From positions 13,790 through 77,789 of the forward strand of contig CALXUP010000001.1 in the NCBI GenBank assembly GCA_944391715.1: DNA of 64,000 nt. Reading direction: 5' to 3'. Shown piece after piece: positions 639 to 50,423 of the stretch. How positions within the stretch are numbered: position 1 is the stretch's first letter; every line of letters begins with the position of its first letter. This DNA comes from an uncultured Alphaproteobacteria bacterium. Lineage in GTDB: Bacteria; Pseudomonadota; Alphaproteobacteria; RF32; CAG-239. Position numbers and translations under genes: made by a program. The notes under the pieces were generated by a model. The model was not told the DNA's origin, searched no databases, and saw only the letters and a list, made by a program, of their open reading frames with translations.

Positions 639-1559
639 TCAGGCATTGCGGCTTTTGAAAATGCCGTCCTCAAATCCCTGAATGGCCTTATCGCTTTCCG
701 CCATTTCCAAACGTTTTTCGGCAATGGCGGCATAGGCCTTTTCCCGCTCGATGCCAATGTATTGCCGGCCAAGCTTTTTGGCCGTTACGGAAGTTGTGCC
801 GGAGCCGAGAAAGGGATCAAAAACAACATCGCCGGGATTGCTGGAGGCCAGAATCAGCTTGGCTATCAGTTTTTCCGGCTTTTGGGTCGGATGCGGCGTA
901 TTTTCCGGCATTGACCAAAAGGGAATCGAAATATCGGTCCAGATGTTTGACGGGTGGGTTAAACGGTATTTTTTGGCGCCGTTATCAACCCAGTCTTTCG
1001 GCTGTCCATCTTTGTCCCGGTAGGGAGCTATCACTTCTTTTTGGATTTTTACGACGTCAATGTTGAAGCAATAATTTTTGGAAACGGTAAAAAACCAAAT
1101 GTCTTCCAGGCAGTTTTTCCAGTTGTTTTGCGCACCGCGGCCTTTTTCCCGCTCCCAGGAAATGCGGTTTTGCAAAATAAAATACTTGCCGGCAATTTCC
1201 GGAACGGCTATTGAGGTTTTCCAATCGGAACAAATATAAACCGTAGCGTTATCCTTTAACAGGCGGACGGTCTTTTTGAGCCACTTGTCCAACCATTTTT
1301 TATAGGTCTTGAAGTCTGTTTCCTTAAAGGTGGTTGAGGCAAAATTTTTGGTCAGATTATACGGTGGGTCGACAATCATCAAATCTACGCATTTGTCCGG
1401 AAGGTAATCCATCGCCTTTAACGAATCCTGGCAGATTGTTTTGTTTAAAACATCGGTCAGTGCTGCCGCCTTATTTAACCTGACGGTTTTGGCAGCATAG
1501 GCTTTTTCTTCCTTTGCAGAAAGTTCTATTGTTTTATTACGCGGCGCCTTGTCTTTCAT
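639..1559 (-). CDS. Orphan beta-class N6-adenine/N4-cytosine DNA methyltransferase
   Basis: Motif IV DPPY precedes HPTQKP and motif I DPFLGSGTT; ATG at 1559 just after the HPr stop; no restriction endonuclease recognised nearby. Confidence 0.9.
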   Translation of the reverse strand: MKDKAPRNKTIELSAKEEKAYAAKTVRLNKAAALTDVLNKTICQDSLKAMDYLPDKCVDLMIVDPPYNLTKNFASTTFKETDFKTYKKWLDKWLKKTVRLLKDNATVYICSDWKTSIAVPEIAGKYFILQNRISWEREKGRGAQNNWKNCLEDIWFFTVSKNYCFNIDVVKIQKEVIAPYRDKDGQPKDWVDNGAKKYRLTHPSNIWTDISIPFWSMPENTPHPTQKPEKLIAKLILASSNPGDVVFDPFLGSGTTSVTAKKLGRQYIGIEREKAYAAIAEKRLEMAESDKAIQGFEDGIFKSRNA

Positions 1560-1563
1560 CCGG

Positions 1564-1845
1564 CTAGTCTTCGCCAAACTTATTGTCAACCAGCTCTTTT
1601 AAGGCATCCAGGGCTTGTTGTGCCTGGTTACCGGACGTTTTGACCAAAATGGTCGTTCCTTTGGCGGCAGCCAGCATCATCAACCCCATAATTGAACAAC
1701 CGCTAACGCATTGTCCAATCCGTTCAACCTCTACTTCCGCATCAAAATTTTCTACGGTTTTTACAAAAGCAGCAGCAGCTCTGGCATGCAGACCTTTACG
1801 GTTTTTAATTTCCAGCTCGGCGGAAAGCGTTTGATTCTCACTCAT
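1564..1845 (-). CDS. ptsH: HPr/NPr phosphocarrier protein
   Basis: GLHARAAA His15 motif and SIMGLMML Ser46 motif, 93 aa. Confidence 0.95.
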   Translation of the reverse strand: MSENQTLSAELEIKNRKGLHARAAAAFVKTVENFDAEVEVERIGQCVSGCSIMGLMMLAAAKGTTILVKTSGNQAQQALDALKELVDNKFGED

Positions 1846-2692: not shown

Positions 2693-3125
2693 TGTATTTT
2701 CCAGTCAGTTAGCCTATTTGTAAGATGATACTATAATAAGCAAAAACTGTCAATTTTATGTTAATAAAATCTGTCATAACAAAAATATTTCTTCCCTCCC
2801 TCTGAATTCACTCTTTGTTTATTTTTTTGTTTCTTTATTTTCTTGTTTTTTTACTGAGATATTTGTTTTCGCTACTTTTGAATGTCCAAAAAATCCTTTT
2901 CTTACTTTTGCTTGACCAAAAGGCCGAACGTCGGCAGCGCTCAAAAAAGTCAAGCCCAACCTCATTTTCTAAGCTTTCAGCCCAAAGTTAAGGTCACTAC
3001 GTTCCAAGGCTTAGTGCTTCACTATTATCTCTTTGGGCCAAAAGCTAAGAAATTATTCGGTAATCGGGCTGGTCTAACTCCCCCTGCCCCCTCTTATCAA
3101 AGAGGGGGAATTGTTTTTAAGCTCC

Positions 3126-3153
3126 GTCATTCTCGGGCTTGACCCGAGAATCC
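3126..3153 (+). repeat. CGTC-type REP palindrome (empty site)
   Basis: GTCATTCTCGGGCTTGACCCGAGAATCC; identical copy at 48127; resembles Rickettsia RPE-4 / Neisseria dRS3-type repeats. Confidence 0.85.
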
Positions 3154-3173
3154 ACAGGCAACGGCCTGAGCTG

Positions 3174-3233
3174 TCAGTTGTTGAAATTTCTTAGATGATT
3201 CTGGGCTGTGGTATGATAATAGAATTTTCCCAT
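3174..3233 (-). CDS. Small ORF MGKFYYHTTAQNHLRNFNN (19 aa)
   Basis: AAGGAG RBS upstream; first 8 residues shared with ORFs at 27553 and 48655. Confidence 0.45.
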   Translation of the reverse strand: MGKFYYHTTAQNHLRNFNN

Positions 3234-3258
3234 TTCTTTTTAGCTCCTTGTTTTGATT

Positions 3259-3426
3259 AAAACAAAACCGCCGGAAGTTTTCTTCCTGGCGGTGGAACTC
3301 AAAAACTGTATAGACACAGTCGCCATGATTCGTCCACAAAGCGGCTTATTTTAGGCACTCCACCTCAAGGTGGATAAATCTGTAAGATGTTTTCTAGACA
3401 CCACAACCGGTCTCCCGGCTGCGGAA
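3259..3426 (-). ncRNA. C4/P4-CI-like antisense RNA leader with target region and terminator, copy A
   Basis: Hairpins CAGCCGG-GAGA-CCGGTTG, GGTGT-CTAGAAA-ACATC, TCCACC-TTGA-GGTGGA; terminator CCGCC..GGCGG-TTTTGTTTT; pairing conserved in divergent copy B; family name is inferred from architecture. Confidence 0.55.
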
Positions 3427-3429
3427 GTA

Positions 3430-3457
3430 ATCATAAACGAATCTGGGGCTTTTGCAA
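3430..3457 (-). promoter_or_regulatory. Sigma70-like promoter with GANTC in spacer
   Basis: TTGCAA-16 bp-TATGAT; equivalent promoters at 27744-27771 and 48850-48877. Confidence 0.6.
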
Positions 3458-3466
3458 GGCGAAATT

Positions 3467-4546
3467 TTATTTCTTTTTATCTTCTTCGTCTTTTTTGGAT
3501 TTTAACTGCCCGCAAGCAGCCAAAATATCCTGGCCGCGGGCAACGCGTACCGGAGCGGCATATCCGCCTTTTTCCAGCTCTCTCGAAAAAGCCATTACCC
3601 GGTTGCGGGAACTCGGCTTATAAGCGCAGCCCGGCCAGGGGTTGAACGGTATCAGGTTAAACTTTGCACCGATTTTATATTTTTTCATCAAAGCAATCAG
3701 CTGATGGGCGCAATCCAGAGAATCGTTTATGCCGTCTAACATCAGATATTCAAAAGTAATAAAACGGCTGGTAACGATTTTCTGGTATTCCTGACAAGCC
3801 TGCATGACTTCTTCCAGCGGATATTTATTGTTAATCGGCATAATTTTCGAACGCAATTCATTATTCGGCGCATGCAGACTGACAGCCAATTTAACGCCCA
3901 ATTCTTGCGCAACTCTGGTCATTTTCGGCGCAATGCCGGAAGTCGAAAGCGTTATTCGGCGTTTGGATACGGCAAGACCTTCTCCGTCCGAGATGATTTT
4001 CAGCGCAGTTATGACATTGTCCAGATTATGCAGCGGCTCGCCCATTCCCATAACAACAACGTTTGACAGGAATCTGGTTTCATTTGCAGGTGTCGGCCAT
4101 TCGTTATAAGCATCTCTTGCAACCAAAAACTGTCCGACGATTTCCCCGGCGGTCAGATTCCGGGTAATGCGCTGGCTGCCGGTATGACAAAAGGTGCAGC
4201 CGACGGCACAGCCGACCTGCGTGGAGATGCAAACGGCACCGCGGTCTTCTTCCGGAATATAAACCATTTCCACCCGCTGTCCGTCGGCAAATTCCAGCAG
4301 CCATTTGCTGGTTTTGTCCGAAGAAATCTGGCGGGTAACGACTTTCGGACGGCTGATGACATAACCGGCGCTCAATTTCTCGCGCAGGTCTTTAGACAGA
4401 TTGGTCATAGCGGAGAAATCCGTTACGCCCTGATTGTAAAGCCAGTGCCAGATTTGTTTGGCGCGAAAAGGCTTTTCTCCGAGTTTGGCAAGCTCGGCGG
4501 CAAGTTCATCCCGGCTCAAGCCGATAAGTTCGATTTTTTCGTTCAT
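3467..4546 (-). CDS. rlmN: 23S rRNA/tRNA m2A methyltransferase RlmN
   Basis: CISTQVGCAVGCTFC radical-SAM motif, MGMGEP, C-terminal AACGQL. Confidence 0.97.
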   Translation of the reverse strand: MNEKIELIGLSRDELAAELAKLGEKPFRAKQIWHWLYNQGVTDFSAMTNLSKDLREKLSAGYVISRPKVVTRQISSDKTSKWLLEFADGQRVEMVYIPEEDRGAVCISTQVGCAVGCTFCHTGSQRITRNLTAGEIVGQFLVARDAYNEWPTPANETRFLSNVVVMGMGEPLHNLDNVITALKIISDGEGLAVSKRRITLSTSGIAPKMTRVAQELGVKLAVSLHAPNNELRSKIMPINNKYPLEEVMQACQEYQKIVTSRFITFEYLMLDGINDSLDCAHQLIALMKKYKIGAKFNLIPFNPWPGCAYKPSSRNRVMAFSRELEKGGYAAPVRVARGQDILAACGQLKSKKDEEDKKK

Positions 4547-23407: not shown

Positions 23408-23500
23408 GGCGGAGAGCGCCGGACCGGCTGCCCGCCAATCTGGTCAGGTTCGAGAGGAAGCAGCCATAACGGGATTTGACGGGGTCGGTTGTTCTCCACC
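23408..23500 (+). ncRNA. ffs: Signal recognition particle (4.5S) RNA
   Basis: GGTCAGGTTCGAGAGGAAGCAGCC helix-8 motif; 5' GGCGGAGAGC pairs with 3' GTTCTCCACC; ffs-dnaX-ybaB-recR synteny. Confidence 0.92.
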
Positions 23501-23513
23501 CTTTTTTAAGAAA

Positions 23514-26732: not shown

Positions 26733-27146
26733 TATTTTCCCCCAAGGGGATTTTTTCTATTTTTATTGTTACTTTTTGAATGCCAAAAAATCTTTTCCTT
26801 ACTTCTTGTTTTGTTTTTTTATCCGAAATTATTTTTTCTTTGTTACTTTTTGGGTGCCAAAAAGTAACCAAAAAGGCAGCCCTCTCTCGCTTTCTAGGCT
26901 TTCAAGAAAAAGTTAGGGTCGCTACGCTCTCTACCATTGTACTTCAATTTTATCTCTTTTTCTTAAAAGCCAAGAAGTTGCTCGCGAAGGGCAAGGTCTA
27001 ACTCCCCCTTTCCCCCTCTTAGCAAAGAGGGGGTATAAAGTTTCTAAACCTAAGCCATTCGCAAAGGGCACTCAATCGTGCCGGATGAAGGATTGTGCTT
27101 TAGATGGAAGTGAAAGGGTATAGGGGCACTGTCATTCTCGGGCTTG

Positions 27147-27320
27147 AAGTCGATAGTTGGTGAGAACGAGTGCAAATCTCTAGCTTTAGCTTAGATTTGT
27201 ACGAAGTTCGAACCCTACGAGACGCAATTGCATTCGGCGTCGCGTGCCGCAGGCACTGGGACAGCCGGATAAAATCGCTGAGCTGGCGAAGTGCCAAGGG
27301 GCCCGCTTGCGGGAATTTAC
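27147..27320 (+). mobile_element. 174-bp non-autonomous element inserted in REP loop (long form)
   Basis: Splits GTCATTCTCGGGCTTG|ACCCGAGAATCC; same ends (AAGTCGATAG...GGGAATTTAC) as the reverse copy at 48409-48512. Confidence 0.8.
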
Positions 27321-27370
27321 ACCCGAGAATCCACAGGCAACGGCCTGAGCGGTCGGTTGTTGAAATTATG

Positions 27371-27553
27371 CTACAGAAACCGCGTTGCTCCATTGTTTTC
27401 CACGATCAAGATTCTGCCTTGAATGGTAGATTGCCGGGTCAAACCCGGCAATGACAAAAAAACACAACCCGGGGATGACCGGTGCGACCGGCGAGCGGCC
27501 AGTTGACAGCATTGTGCTGCAGAAGCTGCGGTATGATAATAAAACTTTCCCAT
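27371..27553 (-). CDS. Small ORF MGKFYYHT... (60 aa) reading into REP repeats
   Basis: AAGGAG RBS; synonymous differences (AAG TTT vs AAA TTC) relative to copies A and C. Confidence 0.4.
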   Translation of the reverse strand: MGKFYYHTAASAAQCCQLAARRSHRSSPGCVFLSLPGLTRQSTIQGRILIVENNGATRFL

Positions 27554-27576
27554 TTTTTAGCTCCTTCGTTTTGTTA

Positions 27577-27741
27577 AAAACAAAATCCGCCTAAAAAACA
27601 GGCGGATGGAGCCGAAAAACTGCATAGACCAGTTATGGCTATTCGTCGTGCGGGCACGCTTATATTGGATACTCCGCTGAAGCGGAATATTGTTTACAAG
27701 ATGTTTTCTAGACACCACAGTCAGCCTCCTGACTGCGTGAA
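27577..27741 (-). ncRNA. C4/P4-CI-like RNA leader, divergent copy B
   Basis: GCAGTCAG-GAGG-CTGACTGT, invariant GGTGTCTAGAAAACATCTT, ATATTCCGC-TTCA-GCGGAGTAT, terminator TCCGCCT..AGGCGGA-TTTTG. Confidence 0.55.
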
Positions 27742-27828
27742 TTATATTAAACGAATCTATGCTTTTTGCAAGCGTCTTTTTAAGGGAGGGAAGATGTGTC
27801 CCGGATGATACAGACGTAATTGTCTAAT

Positions 27829-45552: not shown

Positions 45553-47403
45553 CTACCTGTTTACATAAGATAAAATCGCCATAATCGCAGCAGGGGTAAC
45601 CCCCGGAATGCGGGATGCTTCACCGATTGTCGCCGGACGGACTTTACTGAGTTTGAAAATCATTTCACGCGACAGGCCGCCGATTTTGCCGTAATCAATA
45701 TCATCGCGCAAGCGCAGATTCTCATCTTTCTTGAATATTTGAATATCTGCCAACTGACGTTTTAAATATCCGGCATATTTTGCCTCAATTTCAATTTCTT
45801 CATAGACATCGGCCGGAATATCTTTTAATTCAGGCCAGATGTTTGTTATTGTTTCACGTGAAACACCTTCGTAAGACATTACATTAAAAGCCGTTCTTTT
45901 GGTTCCGTCTTTTTTGGTTTTAATCCCAAATTTTTCCAGCTCATTCGGCGTGATGAAAAGTTGGTCGGTTAATTGACGATATTGATTTATTTTGTTCGCT
46001 TTTGCTTTAAATACACTGTATCTATTTTCTCCGACACAGCCGGCTTTATATCCTTTTTCCGTCAGACGGGCATCGGCATTATCAGCCCGCAGATAAAGGC
46101 GGTATTCTGAGCGCGACGTAAACATACGATAAGGTTCATCAACGCCTTTTGTTATCAAATCATCTATCATTACGCCGATATAAGCTTCACTGCGGTCAAT
46201 TTCAAAACCTGGTTTTTCCAAGGCTTTCAAGCCGGCGTTCACTCCGGCCAGTAACCCTTGGGCGGCAGCTTCCTCATAACCGGTCGTTCCGTTAATCTGT
46301 CCGGCCAAAAACAGTCCGGGAACTTTTTTACATTCCAAGTGATTGTTCAGCTCCTGCGGATCTACAAAATCATATTCAATAGCGTAAGCCGGGCGCAGGA
46401 TTTCAACATTTTCCAATCCCTTTATCGTATGGATAAATTCTTCCTGAACATCCGCCGGTAAAGAAGTCGAAATACCGTTCGGATAAACTACATCGGTATT
46501 CAGTCCTTCCGGTTCCAAAAAAATCTGATGACTGGTGCGATCGGCAAATTTAACAAGCTTATCTTCAATGCTCGGGCAATAACGCGGTCCGATGCCGGTA
46601 ATTAATCCGGAGAAGAGGGCGCATTTATCAAAATTTGCACGAATGATTTCATGCGTTTTTTCATTGGTATGCGTAATATGGCACTGAATTTGCGGATTGG
46701 TGATTTCTTTGGTCAAATAGGAAAAGGGAACCGGAGGATTGTCGCCGTCCTGCGTTTCCAATATATCCCAATTAATAGTCTTTCCGTTTAATCGTGCCGG
46801 CGTTCCCGTTTTTAACCGTCCGACTTTTAGTCCGACAGACTTTAAATACGGTGTTATTCCCGTGCAGGTTACATCATTAACCCGGCCGCCGATTGTTGTC
46901 TGGTGTCCGATAAACATTACGCCGTTCAAAAAAGTGCCGGAAGTCAGAATCACTGTTTTAGATTTTATTTTGCCACCATCGGCCAAAACAACACCGGTAA
47001 TTTTATTTTCATCAAAAATCAGACCTTCAACCGCGGCCTCTATAATTTCTAAATTTTTTTGCTCTCGCAAAGCTTCCAGCATGTATTTTTTATACAAATC
47101 TCTGTCAGCCTGAGCACGCGGGCCACGAACGGCCGGACCTTTGGAGGCGTTTAACATTCTAAACTGGATGCCGGCCTTATCTATAACTTTTGCCATTAAG
47201 CCGTCAAGCGCGTCAATTTCCCTTACCAAATGACCTTTGCCCAGTCCGCCGATTGCCGGATTGCAGGACATTTCGCCAATTGTAGAAATTTTGTGTGTTA
47301 TTAAAGCCGTTTTTGCGCCGACACGAGCCGCTGCCGCACAGGCTTCACACCCGGCATGTCCGCCGCCAACGACTATTACGTCATATTCTTTATTATTATT
47401 CAT
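45553..47403 (-). CDS. mnmG: tRNA uridine-34 modification enzyme MnmG (GidA)
   Basis: [45 protein letters not shown]. Confidence 0.98.
45850..45865. promoter_or_regulatory. parS site (perfect)
   Basis: TGTTTCACGTGAAACA inside mnmG. Confidence 0.93.
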
Positions 47404-48408
47404 TATTTCTGACCTAAGTTCTTTTGTCTTGGGTATAATATAACTGATAAAAGTTTGCAAGAGATTAATAGGGTATAAATTGTTCCCTCCCTCTGAATTC
47501 ACTCTTTATTTATTTTATAATTTTATTTTTCATTGTTACTTTTTAAGTGCTAAAAAGTTCTTTTCTTATTTCTTGTTTTTTATCTGAAATTATTTTTCAT
47601 TGTTACTTTTTGAATGTCAAAAAATCTTTTCCTTACTTCTTGTTTTGTTTTTTTATCCGAAATTATTTTTTCTTTGTTACTTTTTGGGTGCCAAAAAGTA
47701 ACCAAAAAAGCAGCCCTACGCTCATTTGCTTAGGTTTCAGAGCAAAATTAACCTCGCTACGCTCTCTACCATTGTGCTTCAATTTCGGTTTTTGCTCCAA
47801 AACCTAAGCCATTCGCAAAGGGCACTCAATCGTGCCCAAATGGATGTTTTGTGCTTTTTTTGATATGACAGAAAAGTTAGCCCTGAACTCGTTTTCTAAG
47901 TCTTCGTGAAAAAGTTCAGGCCGTCTAAGCCAAGGCTAAGACGGCAAGAAGGCACATAGTGTTTTTAATTTCCTCTTTTTCACAAAGACTAAGAAGTACT
48001 CGTTAAAGGGCATTTCTAACGCCCCCTGCCCCCCTCTTAGCAAAGAGGGGGTATAAAGTTTCTAAACCTAAGCTATTCGCAAAGGGTAGTTAAAAGTGCC
48101 GGACGAGGGATTGTGCTTGAGGTATTGTCATTCTCGGGCTTGACCCGAGAATCCACAGGCAACGGCCTGAGCGGTCAGTTGTTGAAATTGTGCCACAACG
48201 ACCGCGTTGCTCCATTGTTTTTCACAGTCAAGATTGTGTTTTGAAATATGGATCCCCGGGGCAAGCCGGGGATGACTAAAAAAATAAAGTGCCCGGGTAT
48301 GACCGGTGCGACCGGCGAGCGGTCAGTTGTTGAAATTGTGCCACAGAGACCGCGGTGCTCCGGCATTTTCTGTGAGGACTTTGTGCTTTGAAGGGTGGAT
48401 TGCCGGGT

Positions 48409-48512
48409 GTAAATTCCCGCAAGCGGGCCCCTTTCGTCCCGTAGGGTTCGAACTTCGTACAAATCTAAGCTAAAGCTAAGGATTTGCACTCGTTCTCACC
48501 AACTATCGACTT
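48409..48512 (-). mobile_element. 104-bp non-autonomous element inserted in REP loop (short form)
   Basis: Splits reverse-strand GTCATTGCCGGACTTG|ACCCGGCAATCC at the same position as the 27147-27320 copy. Confidence 0.8.
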
Positions 48513-48565
48513 CAAGTCCGGCAATGACAACGATAATAAGCGGTTATTTAATCTCGCTCTTTTAT

Positions 48566-48655
48566 TTAACCCTCTATCTCTTCTTCCAAGGCCTCAAAAC
48601 TGTCGCAAGGGTCTTCATTGAAGTCTTCCGTCGTATGATAATAGAATTTTCCCAT
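48566..48655 (-). CDS. Small acidic ORF MGKFYYHTTEDFNEDPCDSFEALEEEIEG (29 aa)
   Basis: AAGGAG RBS; shared N-terminus; unique tail not derived from REP sequence. Confidence 0.5.
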   Translation of the reverse strand: MGKFYYHTTEDFNEDPCDSFEALEEEIEG

Positions 48656-48679
48656 TTCTTTTTAGCTCCTTGTTTTGAT

Positions 48680-48846
48680 AAAAAAAACCGCCGGAAGTTT
48701 TCTTCCTGGCGGTGGAGATCAAAAACTGTACAGACACAGTCGCCATGTTTCGTCCGCAAAGCGGCTTATTTTAGGCACTCCACCTCAAGGTGGATAAATC
48801 TGTAAGATGTTTTCTAGACACCACAACCGGTCTCCCGGCTGCGGAA
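48680..48846 (-). ncRNA. C4/P4-CI-like RNA leader, copy C
   Basis: Near-identical to copy A; single-stranded TACAGA is exactly complementary to downstream loop TCTGTA. Confidence 0.55.
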
Positions 48847-48884
48847 GTAATCATAAACGAATCTGGGGCTTTTGCAAGGCTTTA

Positions 48885-50225
48885 TTATTTGCCGATACAG
48901 AAATCACCGAATATCTTATCAAGAATCTCATTGACTTCTATGCGGCCGGTGATTTTGCCCAGAGCCCTGGCAGCCAGACGAATATCTTCTGCCGTCAGTT
49001 CGATTTCTTTATCAAAACTGAAATGCTGCAGGTTTTCCATAACTTCCTGCAATGCTTCACGATAGCGGCTGCGGGTTATCAGCAAATTGGAGTTGGAAGT
49101 AAAACGTTCGCAGATATATTCGTATATCCGGTCTAAAATTTGAGAAATTCCTTCCTTTTGTTTGGCGGAAATCAAAATACAACCTTGTTTTTCTAATTCA
49201 GAACACTGTTCGGAAGTTAATTTATCACTTTTATTTGCGACAAGTATAGTATTGTTTTTAAAAGAATTTCTTATATTATCAAATATTTGAACACCATCTT
49301 TTGAGGCATCAAACAAACATATTATAAAATCTGCCGATTTTATCTTACTATAAGCAATTTCAATGCCTTTCTTTTCGATTTCTTCATTTGCTTCCCGCAA
49401 TCCGGCCGTATCGGTAAACATAACAGGGTAGCCTTTGATATCTAAATGGATATCTATCGCGTCACGGGTTGTTCCGGCAATATCAGAAACTATCACGGCC
49501 TCACGATTGGCAATTGCATTTAACAAACTTGATTTTCCGGCATTGGGCGGCCCGACAATCACAACACGAAAGCCTTCACGCAGACGTTCACCGATATTAT
49601 CAGCTTTTAAATGTTCATAAACACTGTTTTCAAGTTTAAATACATTGTTTTTCATTTCTGACATAACATTATTCGGAATATCTTCATCGGGAAAATCGAT
49701 AAAAGCTTCCAAATGGGCAAGAATTTTCAGCAGCTGTTCCCGCCAGTCGTCATACAGGTTCTTCAGTCCGCCTTCCATTTGGCGCATGGCATATTTTTGC
49801 TGTTCGGAAGTTTCGGCATCAATCAGGTCAGCCAGGCCTTCTGCCTCGGTTAAATCCATTTTGCCGTTATAAAAAGCACGTTTGGAAAATTCTCCCGGTT
49901 CAGCCATACGAAAATCTTCTATCTGCGCCAAAGTCGAAAGGACTCCGGAAATTACGGCCTTGGAGCCATGAGTCTGGATTTCGACAATATCTTCCCCGGT
50001 AAAAGAATTCGGTGCCTTAAAATACAAAATAAGGCATTTATCCAGCGTATTGCCTTCATTATTCTTCAGGCTGACAAAATAAGCGTAACGCGGTTTTATT
50101 TTTGTTGCATCCAAACTTGTCATTTTTTTCAGCGCCGCAAGGGCATTGTTTCCGGAAATGCGGATGATGGCAACGCCCGACTTGCCGTATACGGTGGAAA
50201 GAGCATAAATTGTCTGGTTGTCCAT
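48885..50225 (-). CDS. mnmE: tRNA modification GTPase MnmE
   Basis: SFTGED, GPPNAGKSS, GTTRD, DTAG, NKSD, C-terminal FCIGK. Confidence 0.97.
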   Translation of the reverse strand: MDNQTIYALSTVYGKSGVAIIRISGNNALAALKKMTSLDATKIKPRYAYFVSLKNNEGNTLDKCLILYFKAPNSFTGEDIVEIQTHGSKAVISGVLSTLAQIEDFRMAEPGEFSKRAFYNGKMDLTEAEGLADLIDAETSEQQKYAMRQMEGGLKNLYDDWREQLLKILAHLEAFIDFPDEDIPNNVMSEMKNNVFKLENSVYEHLKADNIGERLREGFRVVIVGPPNAGKSSLLNAIANREAVIVSDIAGTTRDAIDIHLDIKGYPVMFTDTAGLREANEEIEKKGIEIAYSKIKSADFIICLFDASKDGVQIFDNIRNSFKNNTILVANKSDKLTSEQCSELEKQGCILISAKQKEGISQILDRIYEYICERFTSNSNLLITRSRYREALQEVMENLQHFSFDKEIELTAEDIRLAARALGKITGRIEVNEILDKIFGDFCIGK

Positions 50226-50423
50226 TTTGGCCTCAAAAGTTAAAATAACATCTGTGTCTGTTATAAATTCAAGCTTAAAAATTGGCAAGTTTTAAAATCG
50301 GGCGATTTTTTGACCACTGAAAGCAATTTTACTTGTTGTTAACCAATCTGTCATAGAATCGTCAAAATTCCTCTGTACGGGCTTTATACGGACTCGATTT
50401 TTTAATACTGAAAGTTTACAAAA

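Follow-up and report, generated by a model that had tools for sequence, protein, structure and literature searches.

Three mosaic intergenic islands of an uncultured alphaproteobacterium as probable decaying copies of a regulator-gene cassette with a leader RNA and a hairpin tail

Among the described intergenic repeat systems, the bacterial interspersed mosaic elements (BIMEs) of enterobacteria and pseudomonads, built from repetitive extragenic palindromes (REPs), come close to the sequences considered here in that many short GC-rich extragenic palindromes are arranged as mosaics downstream of genes (PMC2817692, PMC3333891, as far as the accessible parts of both reports go). The subject of this study is a stretch of 64,000 nucleotides (nt) from an uncultured Alphaproteobacteria bacterium (RF32; CAG-239; contig CALXUP010000001.1 of assembly GCA_944391715.1, positions 13,790 to 77,789), referred to as the window, and three intergenic islands within it, A (2792-3460), B (26765-27773) and C (47483-48880). 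It is likely that these islands are old, decaying copies of a composite unit specific to this lineage, in which a regulator-gene cassette with a leader RNA is followed by a hairpin tail. The assembly that holds the window, G000, is a metagenome-assembled draft of 1.55 Mb in 35 contigs with 96.8% completeness; the window lies on its 217-kb contig C1, and the comparisons include 10 congeners (G001-G010).

In the accessible parts of the same two reports, BIMEs resemble the islands in having neither a terminal inverted repeat nor a target duplication, and differ from them in that their REPs alternate in orientation whereas island REPs are mostly direct (PMC2817692, PMC3333891). The islands are also unlike the BIMEs described there in being much longer (0.37-1.8 kb) and in having a gene cassette at the head, besides a long hairpin, a tandem A-rich unit and a terminus that is fixed. 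REPIN-RAYT systems include a gene for a cognate HUH transposase, a REP-associated tyrosine transposase; no such RAYT/Y1 gene was found in G000 (PF01797, 0 matches). The pneumococcal BOX elements (boxA-boxB(n)-boxC) and SPRITEs (rho-independent terminator-like elements of Streptococcus pneumoniae) share with the islands, in architecture only, end modules that are fixed and middle modules that vary in number, together with terminator-shaped members near the 3′ ends of genes and an over-representation downstream of genes (PMC3049150, accessible part). BOX elements are there described as 67-637 bp long, with terminal inverted repeats and target duplications (PMC3049150), whereas the islands have unrelated ends, no duplication, a dead protein-coding unit at the head and no sequence relation to BOX. 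Also comparable are the neisserial intergenic mosaic element (NIME) arrays and minimal mobile elements, intergenic block arrays of 0.2-2.7 kb with promoter-less or silent gene pieces, which, in the accessible part of the source, are proposed to drive recombination between copies and rearrangement (PMC3898611); the islands, too, are found at an inversion end and at synteny breaks. NIME blocks are separated by 20-bp dRS3 repeats, the targets of phage integrases, according to the same part of that source (PMC3898611). The islands, by comparison, have no constant spacer in the copies examined, the long hairpin abutting the 67-nt unit in 16 of 16, and their relic genes, unlike the silent cassettes of NIME arrays as far as these are described there, are not variants feeding an expression locus.

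Three further classes can be compared by their ends. Miniature inverted-repeat transposable elements combine terminal inverted repeats with a target duplication, and the islands have neither. Integron attC sites have the form RYYYAAC ... GTTRRRY, whereas the long hairpins of the islands run GCCC...GGGC; a GTCTAAC stands beside the palindrome in A and B without a matching partner box. Elements derived from the insertion sequences (IS) IS200/IS605 agree with the islands in their dissimilar ends and the absence of a duplication, but no Y1 enzyme is encoded in G000. IS200/IS605-derived elements have subterminal hairpins, depend on a Y1 enzyme acting in trans and have a fixed target 5′ of the left end; this target measures 4-5 nt, which is shorter than the 8-nt constant flank at the 5′ edge of the island cassette.

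The three islands are related to one another as a mosaic of shared blocks. A repeat search of the window aligns A 3260-3460 with C 48680-48880 (97% over 201 nt) and B 26760-26883 with C 47594-47717 (98% over 124 nt), and the left ends of A and C (2789-2839 and 47480-47530) are 84% identical over 51 nt. All three contain a 63-nt REP (3126-3188, 27305-27367 and 48127-48189), 67-nt T-rich units and a CCCCCTCTT-N4-AAGAGGGGG palindrome (3087-3108 in A, 27012-27033 in B, 48030-48051 in C). A and C also share the terminal TTTTGCAAGGC (3450-3460 and 48870-48880), which ends 6 nt from the stop codon of open reading frame (ORF) 3467-4546 (minus strand) in A and 4 nt from that of 48885-50288 (minus strand) in C. 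The flanking genes were assigned by Pfam to RlmN, MnmE, CvpA (Colicin_V), PgpA and MnmG/GidA. The initial annotation is borne out in its description of a pairwise mosaic, of one module order and orientation, and of a common end base near the rlmN and mnmE stop codons. It had listed the modules from the T-rich units to the promoter; the sense strand of the islands is instead the minus strand, on which the order reads promoter, leader of about 150 nt, start of a helix-turn-helix (HTH) gene, REPs, palindrome, long hairpin, A-rich units and a sharp 3′ end. A and C follow this series to its last member, whereas B lacks the 3′ end and adjoins the pgpA terminator.

For a map of the whole assembly the modules were named X (promoter plus leader), R1-R3 (REP-like hairpins), M (a 174-nt insert), P (palindrome), H (long hairpin), T (67-nt unit), LE (3′ end) and K (the 5′ half of an H of subtype C1). 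The map contains 63 clusters, of which 40 consist of REP/M only and 23 are composite, with at least one other module. X leads in seven of seven composite clusters and LE closes in seven of seven; T follows immediately after the last H in 16 of 16, the first REP lies 5′ of the first H in 17 of 17, and every REP precedes T in 15 of 16, the odd one standing at a contig start. None of 91 X, K, H, T or LE matches is inverted relative to its own island, and variation is in number, with the (R-K-H) block present once or twice and T one to three times per island. In G000, K, P, H, T and LE are confined to composite clusters, the exceptions being fragments at contig ends and a single minimal form. The order shared by the islands thus goes far beyond chance and extends to 23 clusters of the genome. 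Since the modules were cut from the window's own islands, the map tests block homology rather than independent assortment, and the order counts show that the copies are homologous as blocks; it is this homology as whole blocks that makes the order uniform everywhere.

The islands had been regarded as primarily non-coding, with a small ORF as an independent module. That ORF is instead the stump of a real HTH gene of 113 amino acids (aa), and the islands are relics of a coding cassette (promoter, leader, HTH gene and own terminator) joined to a repeat tail. The right-hand module has seven copies in G000, in two of which the gene is intact with 113 codons (C7:32395-32736 and C17:23751-24092), and the protein has 10 matches in G001 and 15 in G010 at 85-88% identity. 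Island promoters share the pattern TTGCAA-N16/17-TATGAT/TAATAT, and the leader terminator is followed by a Shine-Dalgarno sequence and gene start, AAGGAGC-N8-ATG GGA AAA TTC TAT TAT CAT (MGKFYYHT). A tentative assignment to the XRE-type HTH class is by sub-threshold Pfam matches (HTH_31, 19.6 bits against a cut-off of 27; HTH_3, 18.3 bits against 23), and an AlphaFold model of low confidence places helices at residues 11-30, 36-43, 47-54 and 62-71 with a mean pLDDT (predicted local distance difference test) of 55. The family is narrow, comprising 17 clusters in a large protein collection, all unnamed and without Pfam domains, and the protein had no match in phage and plasmid collections.

Among 14 intact copies, homology extends from -230, just 5′ of the -35 box, to about 30-50 nt past the stop codon (about +375-390), where a conserved terminator, AAAAAAGCGGGAG...CTCCCGCTTTTTT, forms the 3′ border; the homology therefore spans promoter to terminator, and the cassette is a complete transcription unit of 0.6 kb. 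Its 5′ edge is constant, with the same (stop codon)AAAATCCG|CTTGCAAAA in about 25 copies from separate loci, and the upstream gene's TAA, TAG or TGA lies directly against the A-run at this edge or overlaps it. Inverted repeats between the 5′ flank and the terminator were sought without a convincing match, and the 5′ flank does not covary with the terminator type. All three cassettes of the window are dead, the gene being truncated or internally deleted and the leader helices mismatched. Four of the five truncated genes of G000 break directly after codon 8.

The leader is a genuine structured RNA. Its fold, drawn from an alignment of 27 distinct copies (MAFFT), comprises a GNRA-capped hairpin P1, a hairpin P2, an outer helix that is long and in two parts (P3 and P4), with a sequence that varies from copy to copy and arms that stay complementary, inner helices P5 and P6, and a terminator. 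On this alignment 87.4% of cells are paired compared with 76.7% after shuffling, neither the observed pairing nor the observed covariation score was reached by any of 500 shuffles, and pairing falls to 34-48% when partner columns are shifted. MAFFT misaligns P2, P4 and P6, and P4 is only 55.6% paired on that alignment; because P4 is misplaced, its arms were compared without alignment, and a run of at least 6 bp was found between cognate arms in 25 of 27 copies and in 10% of 676 non-cognate pairings. RNAalifold selects a rival helix, in which the 3′ arm of P2 pairs with GCTCCNCC, immediately ahead of the terminator. Because this rival helix covaries too (UA 13, CG 10 and GC 3 at columns 73/147), the leader has two mutually exclusive folds, through which it would control the HTH gene by transcription termination. 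Terminator/antiterminator leaders and riboswitch platforms are similar in having a covarying multi-helix 5′ leader, a terminator, a Shine-Dalgarno sequence and a competing long-range helix; the island leader differs from riboswitch-type leaders in matching no Rfam 15 family, in occurring 1-35 times per genome and in standing, in the copies inspected, before small HTH-like genes of 81-113 aa, with the two exceptions given below. A search of the whole window with Rfam 15 at the gathering score gave no leader match, the best match over island C at E<=10 being sRNA-Xcc1 (20.8 bits against a cut-off of 53), and ARAGORN found no tRNA or tmRNA in the islands, though some loops look tRNA-like.

A covariance model of the leader (model R1) has matches in 21 of the 24 other genomes that belong to the same family, as against none of the 16 outside it. 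Copy numbers per genome include 7 in G000, 33 in G001, 35 in G009, 25 in G010 and 19 in G002. For 14 copies from other genomes the next ORF is HTH-like, of 81-103 aa, in 12; one of the remaining two is followed by a 49-aa ORF only and the other has no Shine-Dalgarno match. In G002, leaders precede a different multi-copy protein of 86 aa (MLSRKYRK...), with at least seven near-identical copies (G002/G009 loci L082-L088 and L095), which explains why this genome has 19 leaders yet no match to the 113-aa protein.

The modules of the tail have a narrower range, being present in G000 and six of the 10 congeners (G001-G003 and G008-G010) and not found in G004-G007 or in other genera. With the leader family-wide and the tail in six of 10 congeners, the cassette is the older layer and the tail the younger. 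H falls into four subtypes whose arm differences are compensatory, and all complete copies among 30 H matches start with GCCC and end with GGGC followed by a T-run. The T units are AT hairpins containing perfect 11-3-11 palindromes, GTTACTTTTTGG-N3-CCAAAAAGTAAC, with T-rich sequence on the opposite strand after them, and LE has eight copies in the genome, of two subtypes, each bordered by unrelated DNA. The 23 composite clusters contain 55 R1-R3 matches, and these, like the 40 REP/M-only clusters, all lie between ORFs; relative to the island, R1 is inverted in 1 of 18, R2 in 5 of 23 and R3 in 0 of 14. The minimal form (G000:C11:29680-29790) stands flush after a TAA and consists, within about 150 nt, of AAATCCGCTTGCAAAA, a short GC hairpin, a single T unit and an end that resembles LE. 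Elsewhere, at G000:C10:20500-20600, three tandem copies of a REP half-site with a T-run (GTCATCCCCGGGCTCTCTTTTTTATA) precede a complete hairpin, and a similar triple is seen at C10:14830-14900. By a crude measure, 20-kb GC skew, the sense strand of the islands is the G-rich strand in 13 of 22 clusters, with no clear polarity. Among the titles and abstracts listed in the literature on Enterousia, none dealt with these repeats.

These observations suggest two layers. The first would be a cassette of about 0.6 kb with a sigma-70-like promoter, a switching leader of about 150 nt, a Shine-Dalgarno sequence, the 113-aa HTH gene and its own terminator; the second would be a polar tail of the same orientation, with REPs (M in their loops), H, often with P nested in it, one to three T units and the sharp 3′ end. 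The tail would have accreted behind the cassette gene as it did behind other genes, and the copies would then have diverged as insertions became nested, (R-K-H) was duplicated in tandem, deletions arose at microhomologies and gene conversion took place between copies. A stronger form of accretion, in which separate repeat families with strict site preference rebuild the order at each locus, as in BIMEs, appears doubtful as an account of whole islands. It is favoured by the nesting of modules: M, inverted in 4 of 7 matches, occupies a single position in REP loops and may face either way, and in parallel P and a new H sit at one fixed point of the H-C1 loop (after GAAGCAC) in many islands. It also agrees with the 40 further REP-only places, with REP clusters that begin directly at or near the stop codons of ordinary genes, and with a tail that is younger and narrower in range than the cassette. 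Against it, K, P, H, T and LE are confined to composite clusters, save for the fragments and the minimal form; H subtype and the next T variant are inherited together, an identical T variant coming after H-C1 in all 6 of its 6 complete copies; and whole islands are orthologous across species.

The mnmE-mnmG spacer, which holds island C in G000, illustrates both island-free sites and the course of decay. It measures about 7 bp in G006 and about 150 bp in G005, without an island in either, and in G005 it consists of its own terminator and the same mnmG promoter as in G000. The spacers of G004 and G007 (about 580 and 655 bp) contain unrelated small ORFs. A gene intact with its tail is found in G010 (1565 bp), and an island with a full-length leader match in G009 (1587 bp), whereas codons 9-92 are deleted in G000 (1481 bp), the middle of the leader is fused to about codon 62 in the decayed island of G008 (843 bp), and in G003 (362 bp) a deletion from the terminator to the last T unit has brought the leader directly up to a single T unit and LE. 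As G000, G008 and G003 each differ in the deletion, these represent three separate deletions of one ancestral cassette-plus-tail island. The junction of LE with the mnmG promoter is common to G000, G003 and G008 and occurs in diverged form in G009. The small ORFs in G004 (L067, 2330-2910) and G007 (L069, 155-813) encode about 115-150 aa and have their own promoter-like sites, and small genes seem in general to land in this spacer.

Other loci give a similar picture. At rlmN, the G008 island is 96% identical to A over A's right part, and G003 retains leader plus LE only. Of the 1.1-kb island at the ABC-F locus, G003 retains only the first ~12 nt, the remainder having been lost at a microhomology of 2-3 nt. 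This site was considered as an empty site left by clean excision; the retained ~12 nt and the microhomology favour a deletion, and the site carries no target-site information. The island loci C1:174986 and C6:8013 are occupied in five of five congeners checked, G000 having the tail only at C6:8013 and G010 the cassette plus tail between the same flanks; for two more island loci the flanks are on different contigs or in different places in relatives. At the loci compared, no island of G000 was cleanly absent, with ancestral sequence in its place, from a close relative. The empty sites to which the initial annotation had looked are thus seen at mnmE-mnmG in the outgroup congeners G005 and G006, whereas the rlmN and mnmE islands occupy the same junctions in several congeners. 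When G000 is compared with G008, several islands also prove to lie at the end of an inversion or at breaks in synteny. A segment of about 5 kb between two C10 islands (G000:C10:12900-23300) is inverted in G008 C9, with the right flank about 27 kb away, and the ends of this rearrangement lie within islands.

Exchange between copies, which the initial annotation had proposed as module swapping by recombination, is well supported by the leader of island C. Over 228 nt this leader shows 98% identity to the A leader; its identity to the G008 ortholog of A is 97% (the A leader is itself 97% identical to this ortholog), but that to its own orthologs in G008 and G003 is only 78% over 121 nt and 86% over 222 nt, respectively. 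The flanks are conserved between G000 and G008, with 98% identity for the MnmE protein and 96% for the first 200 residues of MnmG. That the C leader is nearer to A than to its own orthologs despite these conserved flanks therefore indicates, on comparison of the sequences, gene conversion of the mnmE copy by the rlmN copy in the G000 lineage. The patchy blocks of 97-98% identity within islands that are otherwise 70-85% similar, and the mismatched, recombinant-like P3 arms, are consistent with the same process of exchange.

The main rival to a decaying cassette-plus-tail unit is that the stretch from promoter to LE is a non-autonomous mobile element with dissimilar ends, moved in trans and inserting flush behind stop codons, of which the gene-less and minimal forms are internal-deletion derivatives still able to move. 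We regard this as possible rather than probable. Both ends are sharp, the 5′ edge in about 25 copies and the 3′ GAATTCAGAGGGAGGGAA in eight; minimal forms keep just the two ends (G003 at rlmN and mnmE, and G000:C11:29680); an identical gene-less junction (8 codons plus R3) is present at two loci, cvpA and ABC-F; leader copy number varies from 1 to 35 per genome; and IS200-type Y1 transposases are encoded in some relatives. Y1 enzymes leave neither a terminal inverted repeat nor a target duplication. In agreement with the initial annotation, no terminal inverted repeat was found, the 5′ end (AAAATCCGCTTGCAAAA) being unrelated to the 3′ end (GAATTCAGAGGGAGGGAA), no target duplication was seen when islands were compared with island-free or deleted sites, and profile searches of G000 for Y1_Tnp (PF01797), IS110 DEDD, RVT_1, TnpB and rve gave 0 matches each. 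Y1 (PF01797) is encoded in 12 of the 41 genomes searched (G000 and 40 relatives) and in none of the copy-rich genomes G001, G008, G009 and G010. In some congeners, IS200-type Y1 genes lie at contig ends (G002 C2:4-153, C4:4-153 and C61:15-92; also G004:C3 and G006:C64) and are therefore probably multi-copy in those congeners. G000 has three Phage_integrase matches, two of which are open frames of 315 aa that we take, by size alone, to be Xer-type tyrosine recombinases; an integron-type integrase was not specifically sought.

Further evidence against a mobile element comes from the loci themselves. Five of them in G000 (rlmN, mnmE-mnmG, ABC-F, C1:174986 and C6:8013) are found in congeners either occupied or emptied by secondary deletion, there are cassettes that lack LE as well as tails that lack X, and cassette and tail differ in taxonomic range. 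The differing phyletic ranges, together with the tailless cassettes, imply that cassette and tail were not born as one element. What the initial annotation had called a non-autonomous family therefore stands as to its genome-wide occurrence, fixed order and defined ends, but there is no sign of recent spread, the rlmN and mnmE junctions being shared with several congeners; with no transposase of the families searched, inverted repeat, duplication or fresh insertion, spread as a mobile element is unproven. A bolder version, in which the promoter-to-LE unit is a transposase-less mobile cassette that lands exactly behind stop codons, requires no more than its two dissimilar ends (as is suggested by minimal forms that retain nothing else), is moved by a host or unrecognised enzyme that reads hairpins, and carries a self-regulating cargo whose HTH product may bind the tail palindromes, seems unlikely.

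It is rather improbable that the tail is instead kept for a function, whether it terminates transcription in both directions or insulates neighbouring genes, or else serves the cassette HTH protein as an array of operators (GTTACTTTTTGG-N3-CCAAAAAGTAAC). The form of the modules would suit such a role, since H is a long GC-closed hairpin with a sense-strand T-run after it, the AT hairpins of the T units have T-rich sequence after them on the opposite strand, and the space that islands occupy runs from the stop codon of one gene to the promoter or end of its neighbour. Perfect 11-3-11 palindromes are of the type bound by HTH dimers. However, G003 keeps T units without a detectable 113-aa gene, islands are freely shortened or lost there, module number is very variable, and the outgroup congeners manage with 7-150 bp at mnmE-mnmG. 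Least probable by far is an assembly artefact of collapsed or chimeric repeats in the metagenome bin. A 35-contig draft with many repeat clusters at contig ends might invite this explanation, but all three islands lie inside the 217-kb contig, G008 has its rlmN and mnmE islands on one contig with matching spacing and 96% identity through A's right part, and flank junctions are shared by the independent assemblies G003, G009 and G010. Moreover, at least half of the words sampled from 46900-49400 are present in each of nine public runs, a result that speaks for presence only and not for contiguity; the species occurs in chicken and bird gut metagenomes.

Several observations nevertheless weigh against the view of the islands as decaying copies of a single cassette-plus-tail unit. 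Intact cassettes without a recognisable tail exist (L011/L016 and L020-L022), and in G010 and G001 a tailless cassette lies between a membrane-protein gene and a convergent ORF, presumably rubrerythrin-like from the look of its sequence. With the leader family-wide, the notion of one unit is valid only within the tail-bearing subclade, and at C6:8013 the difference between G000 and G010 may reflect either loss of the cassette or its acquisition later on in the sister subclade. In G000 the state of the leader is no guide to that of the gene: the leader system of this genome looks run down, with P3 and P4 both fully complementary in one of six full-length leaders (C7b), and this leader precedes a truncated gene, while both intact genes have damaged leaders, that of C7a being broken and that of C17 truncated at the 5′ end. 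The breaks after codon 8 may mark a recombination hot spot or the spread of an already dead form rather than independent decay. Finally, the data come from a draft metagenome bin in which many repeats lie at contig ends, and contiguity rests on agreement with the congener assemblies.

If the islands are read as decaying cassette-plus-tail copies, three non-coding mosaics become a readable history, in which a gene cassette, its control RNA and a stack of hairpins are seen at several stages of decay. This would provide a worked example of how mosaic intergenic arrays originate in a reduced (about 1.5 Mb) uncultured gut alphaproteobacterium, through block duplication, nested site-specific insertion, microhomology deletion and gene conversion, and such arrays mark rearrangement breakpoints between close species. 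It also brings to light an uncatalogued, family-wide leader RNA, with 1-35 copies per genome, tied to small HTH genes, and raises the question of what sets units flush at stop codons without a recognisable transposase.

All features of the three islands that have a strand are on the minus strand. The promoter of island A (3430-3457) has its -35 box TTGCAA at 3452-3457, a 16-nt spacer and its -10 box TATGAT at 3430-3435; it is preceded by AAATTTCGC, flush against the rlmN stop codon, and the -35 box with its flank (A)AAATCCG recurs in about 25 copies. Leader RNA and terminator follow at 3248-3429 (hairpin ~3268-3293, U-tract 3259-3267; model R1 match G000:C1:17037-17218, E 4e-40), with helices degraded to a P3 run of 6 out of 9 and a P4 run of 4. 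The HTH-gene relic (3174-3233; tblastn match G000:C1:16966-17022) has 19 codons (MGKFYYHTTAQNHLRNFNN) before a stop and breaks within AATTTCAACAA, an 11-nt string common to the gene and the 5′ flank of REP R1, which would be compatible with a microhomology deletion that also took the R3/R2 REPs. Hairpin R1 (3126-3188; sense strand GGATTCTCGGG-TCAAG-CCCGAGAATGAC) is followed by P (3087-3108, with ATCA between CCCCCTCTT and AAGAGGGGG), which as a palindrome is assigned to no strand, and by H of subtype A (2954-3069, about 116 nt, GCCC...GGGC and then a sense-strand T-run). The tail, A-rich on the sense strand, extends over 2810-2950 with one recognisable 67-nt T unit at 2842-2908, and the 3′ terminus LE (2792-2809; sense GAATTCAGAGGGAGGGAA) gives way directly to unrelated DNA.

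Island B begins 56 nt past the cvpA stop codon with a promoter at 27744-27771 (-35 TTGCAA 27766-27771, -10 TAATAT 27744-27749), followed by leader and terminator at 27566-27743 (model R1 match G000:C1:41355-41532, E 4e-36). Its P3 arms are of two different types, CTAG.. opposite ..TCGG; in all three window leaders a CTAG-type 5′ arm of P3 faces a 3′ arm of another type. The gene relic (27530-27553) retains 8 codons (MGKFYYHT) and then runs into REP R3, and this junction recurs at the ABC-F locus of contig C10 (colinear BLAST, B 747-1048 against C10:20584-20284). Next come the REP cluster R3-R2-R1 (27130-27527), with the 174-nt mini-element M (27147-27320) within the R1 loop, and the block K-P-H (26879-27125), made up of K at 27040-27125, which is the 5′ half of H subtype C1 plus a small hairpin, P at 27012-27033 and a complete H of subtype B at 26879-26992. 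Two 67-nt T units (26739-26872), without LE, adjoin the pgpA terminator.

In island C the promoter (48850-48877; -35 at 48872-48877, -10 at 48850-48855) lies 4 nt from the mnmE stop codon, and leader and terminator occupy 48670-48849 (model R1 match G000:C1:62459-62638). The gene relic (48566-48655) joins codons 1-8 in frame to the last 21 codons, giving a 29-aa ORF, and a degenerate cassette terminator follows at ~48540-48565. The REP cluster (R2/R3/R2/R1; 48064-48530) includes one copy of K (48064-48100) and a partial, inverted M in the loop of a GCCGG hairpin (~48413-48516). P, two H and K occupy 47713-48051, with P at 48030-48051, H subtype C2 at 47880-48011, K, and H subtype C1 at 47713-47823; three tandem 67-nt T units (47506-47706) and LE (47483-47500) complete the island at 47483-47706, next to the ancestral mnmG promoter.

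Outside the islands, the small bacterial signal recognition particle RNA at 23408-23503 (plus strand; 51.2 bits, gathering score 40) is the sole Rfam family that passes in the window. Just upstream of HPr/EIIA-like genes, a 316-aa ORF at 639-1589 (minus strand) carries a DPPY motif and is presumably DNA methyltransferase-like.

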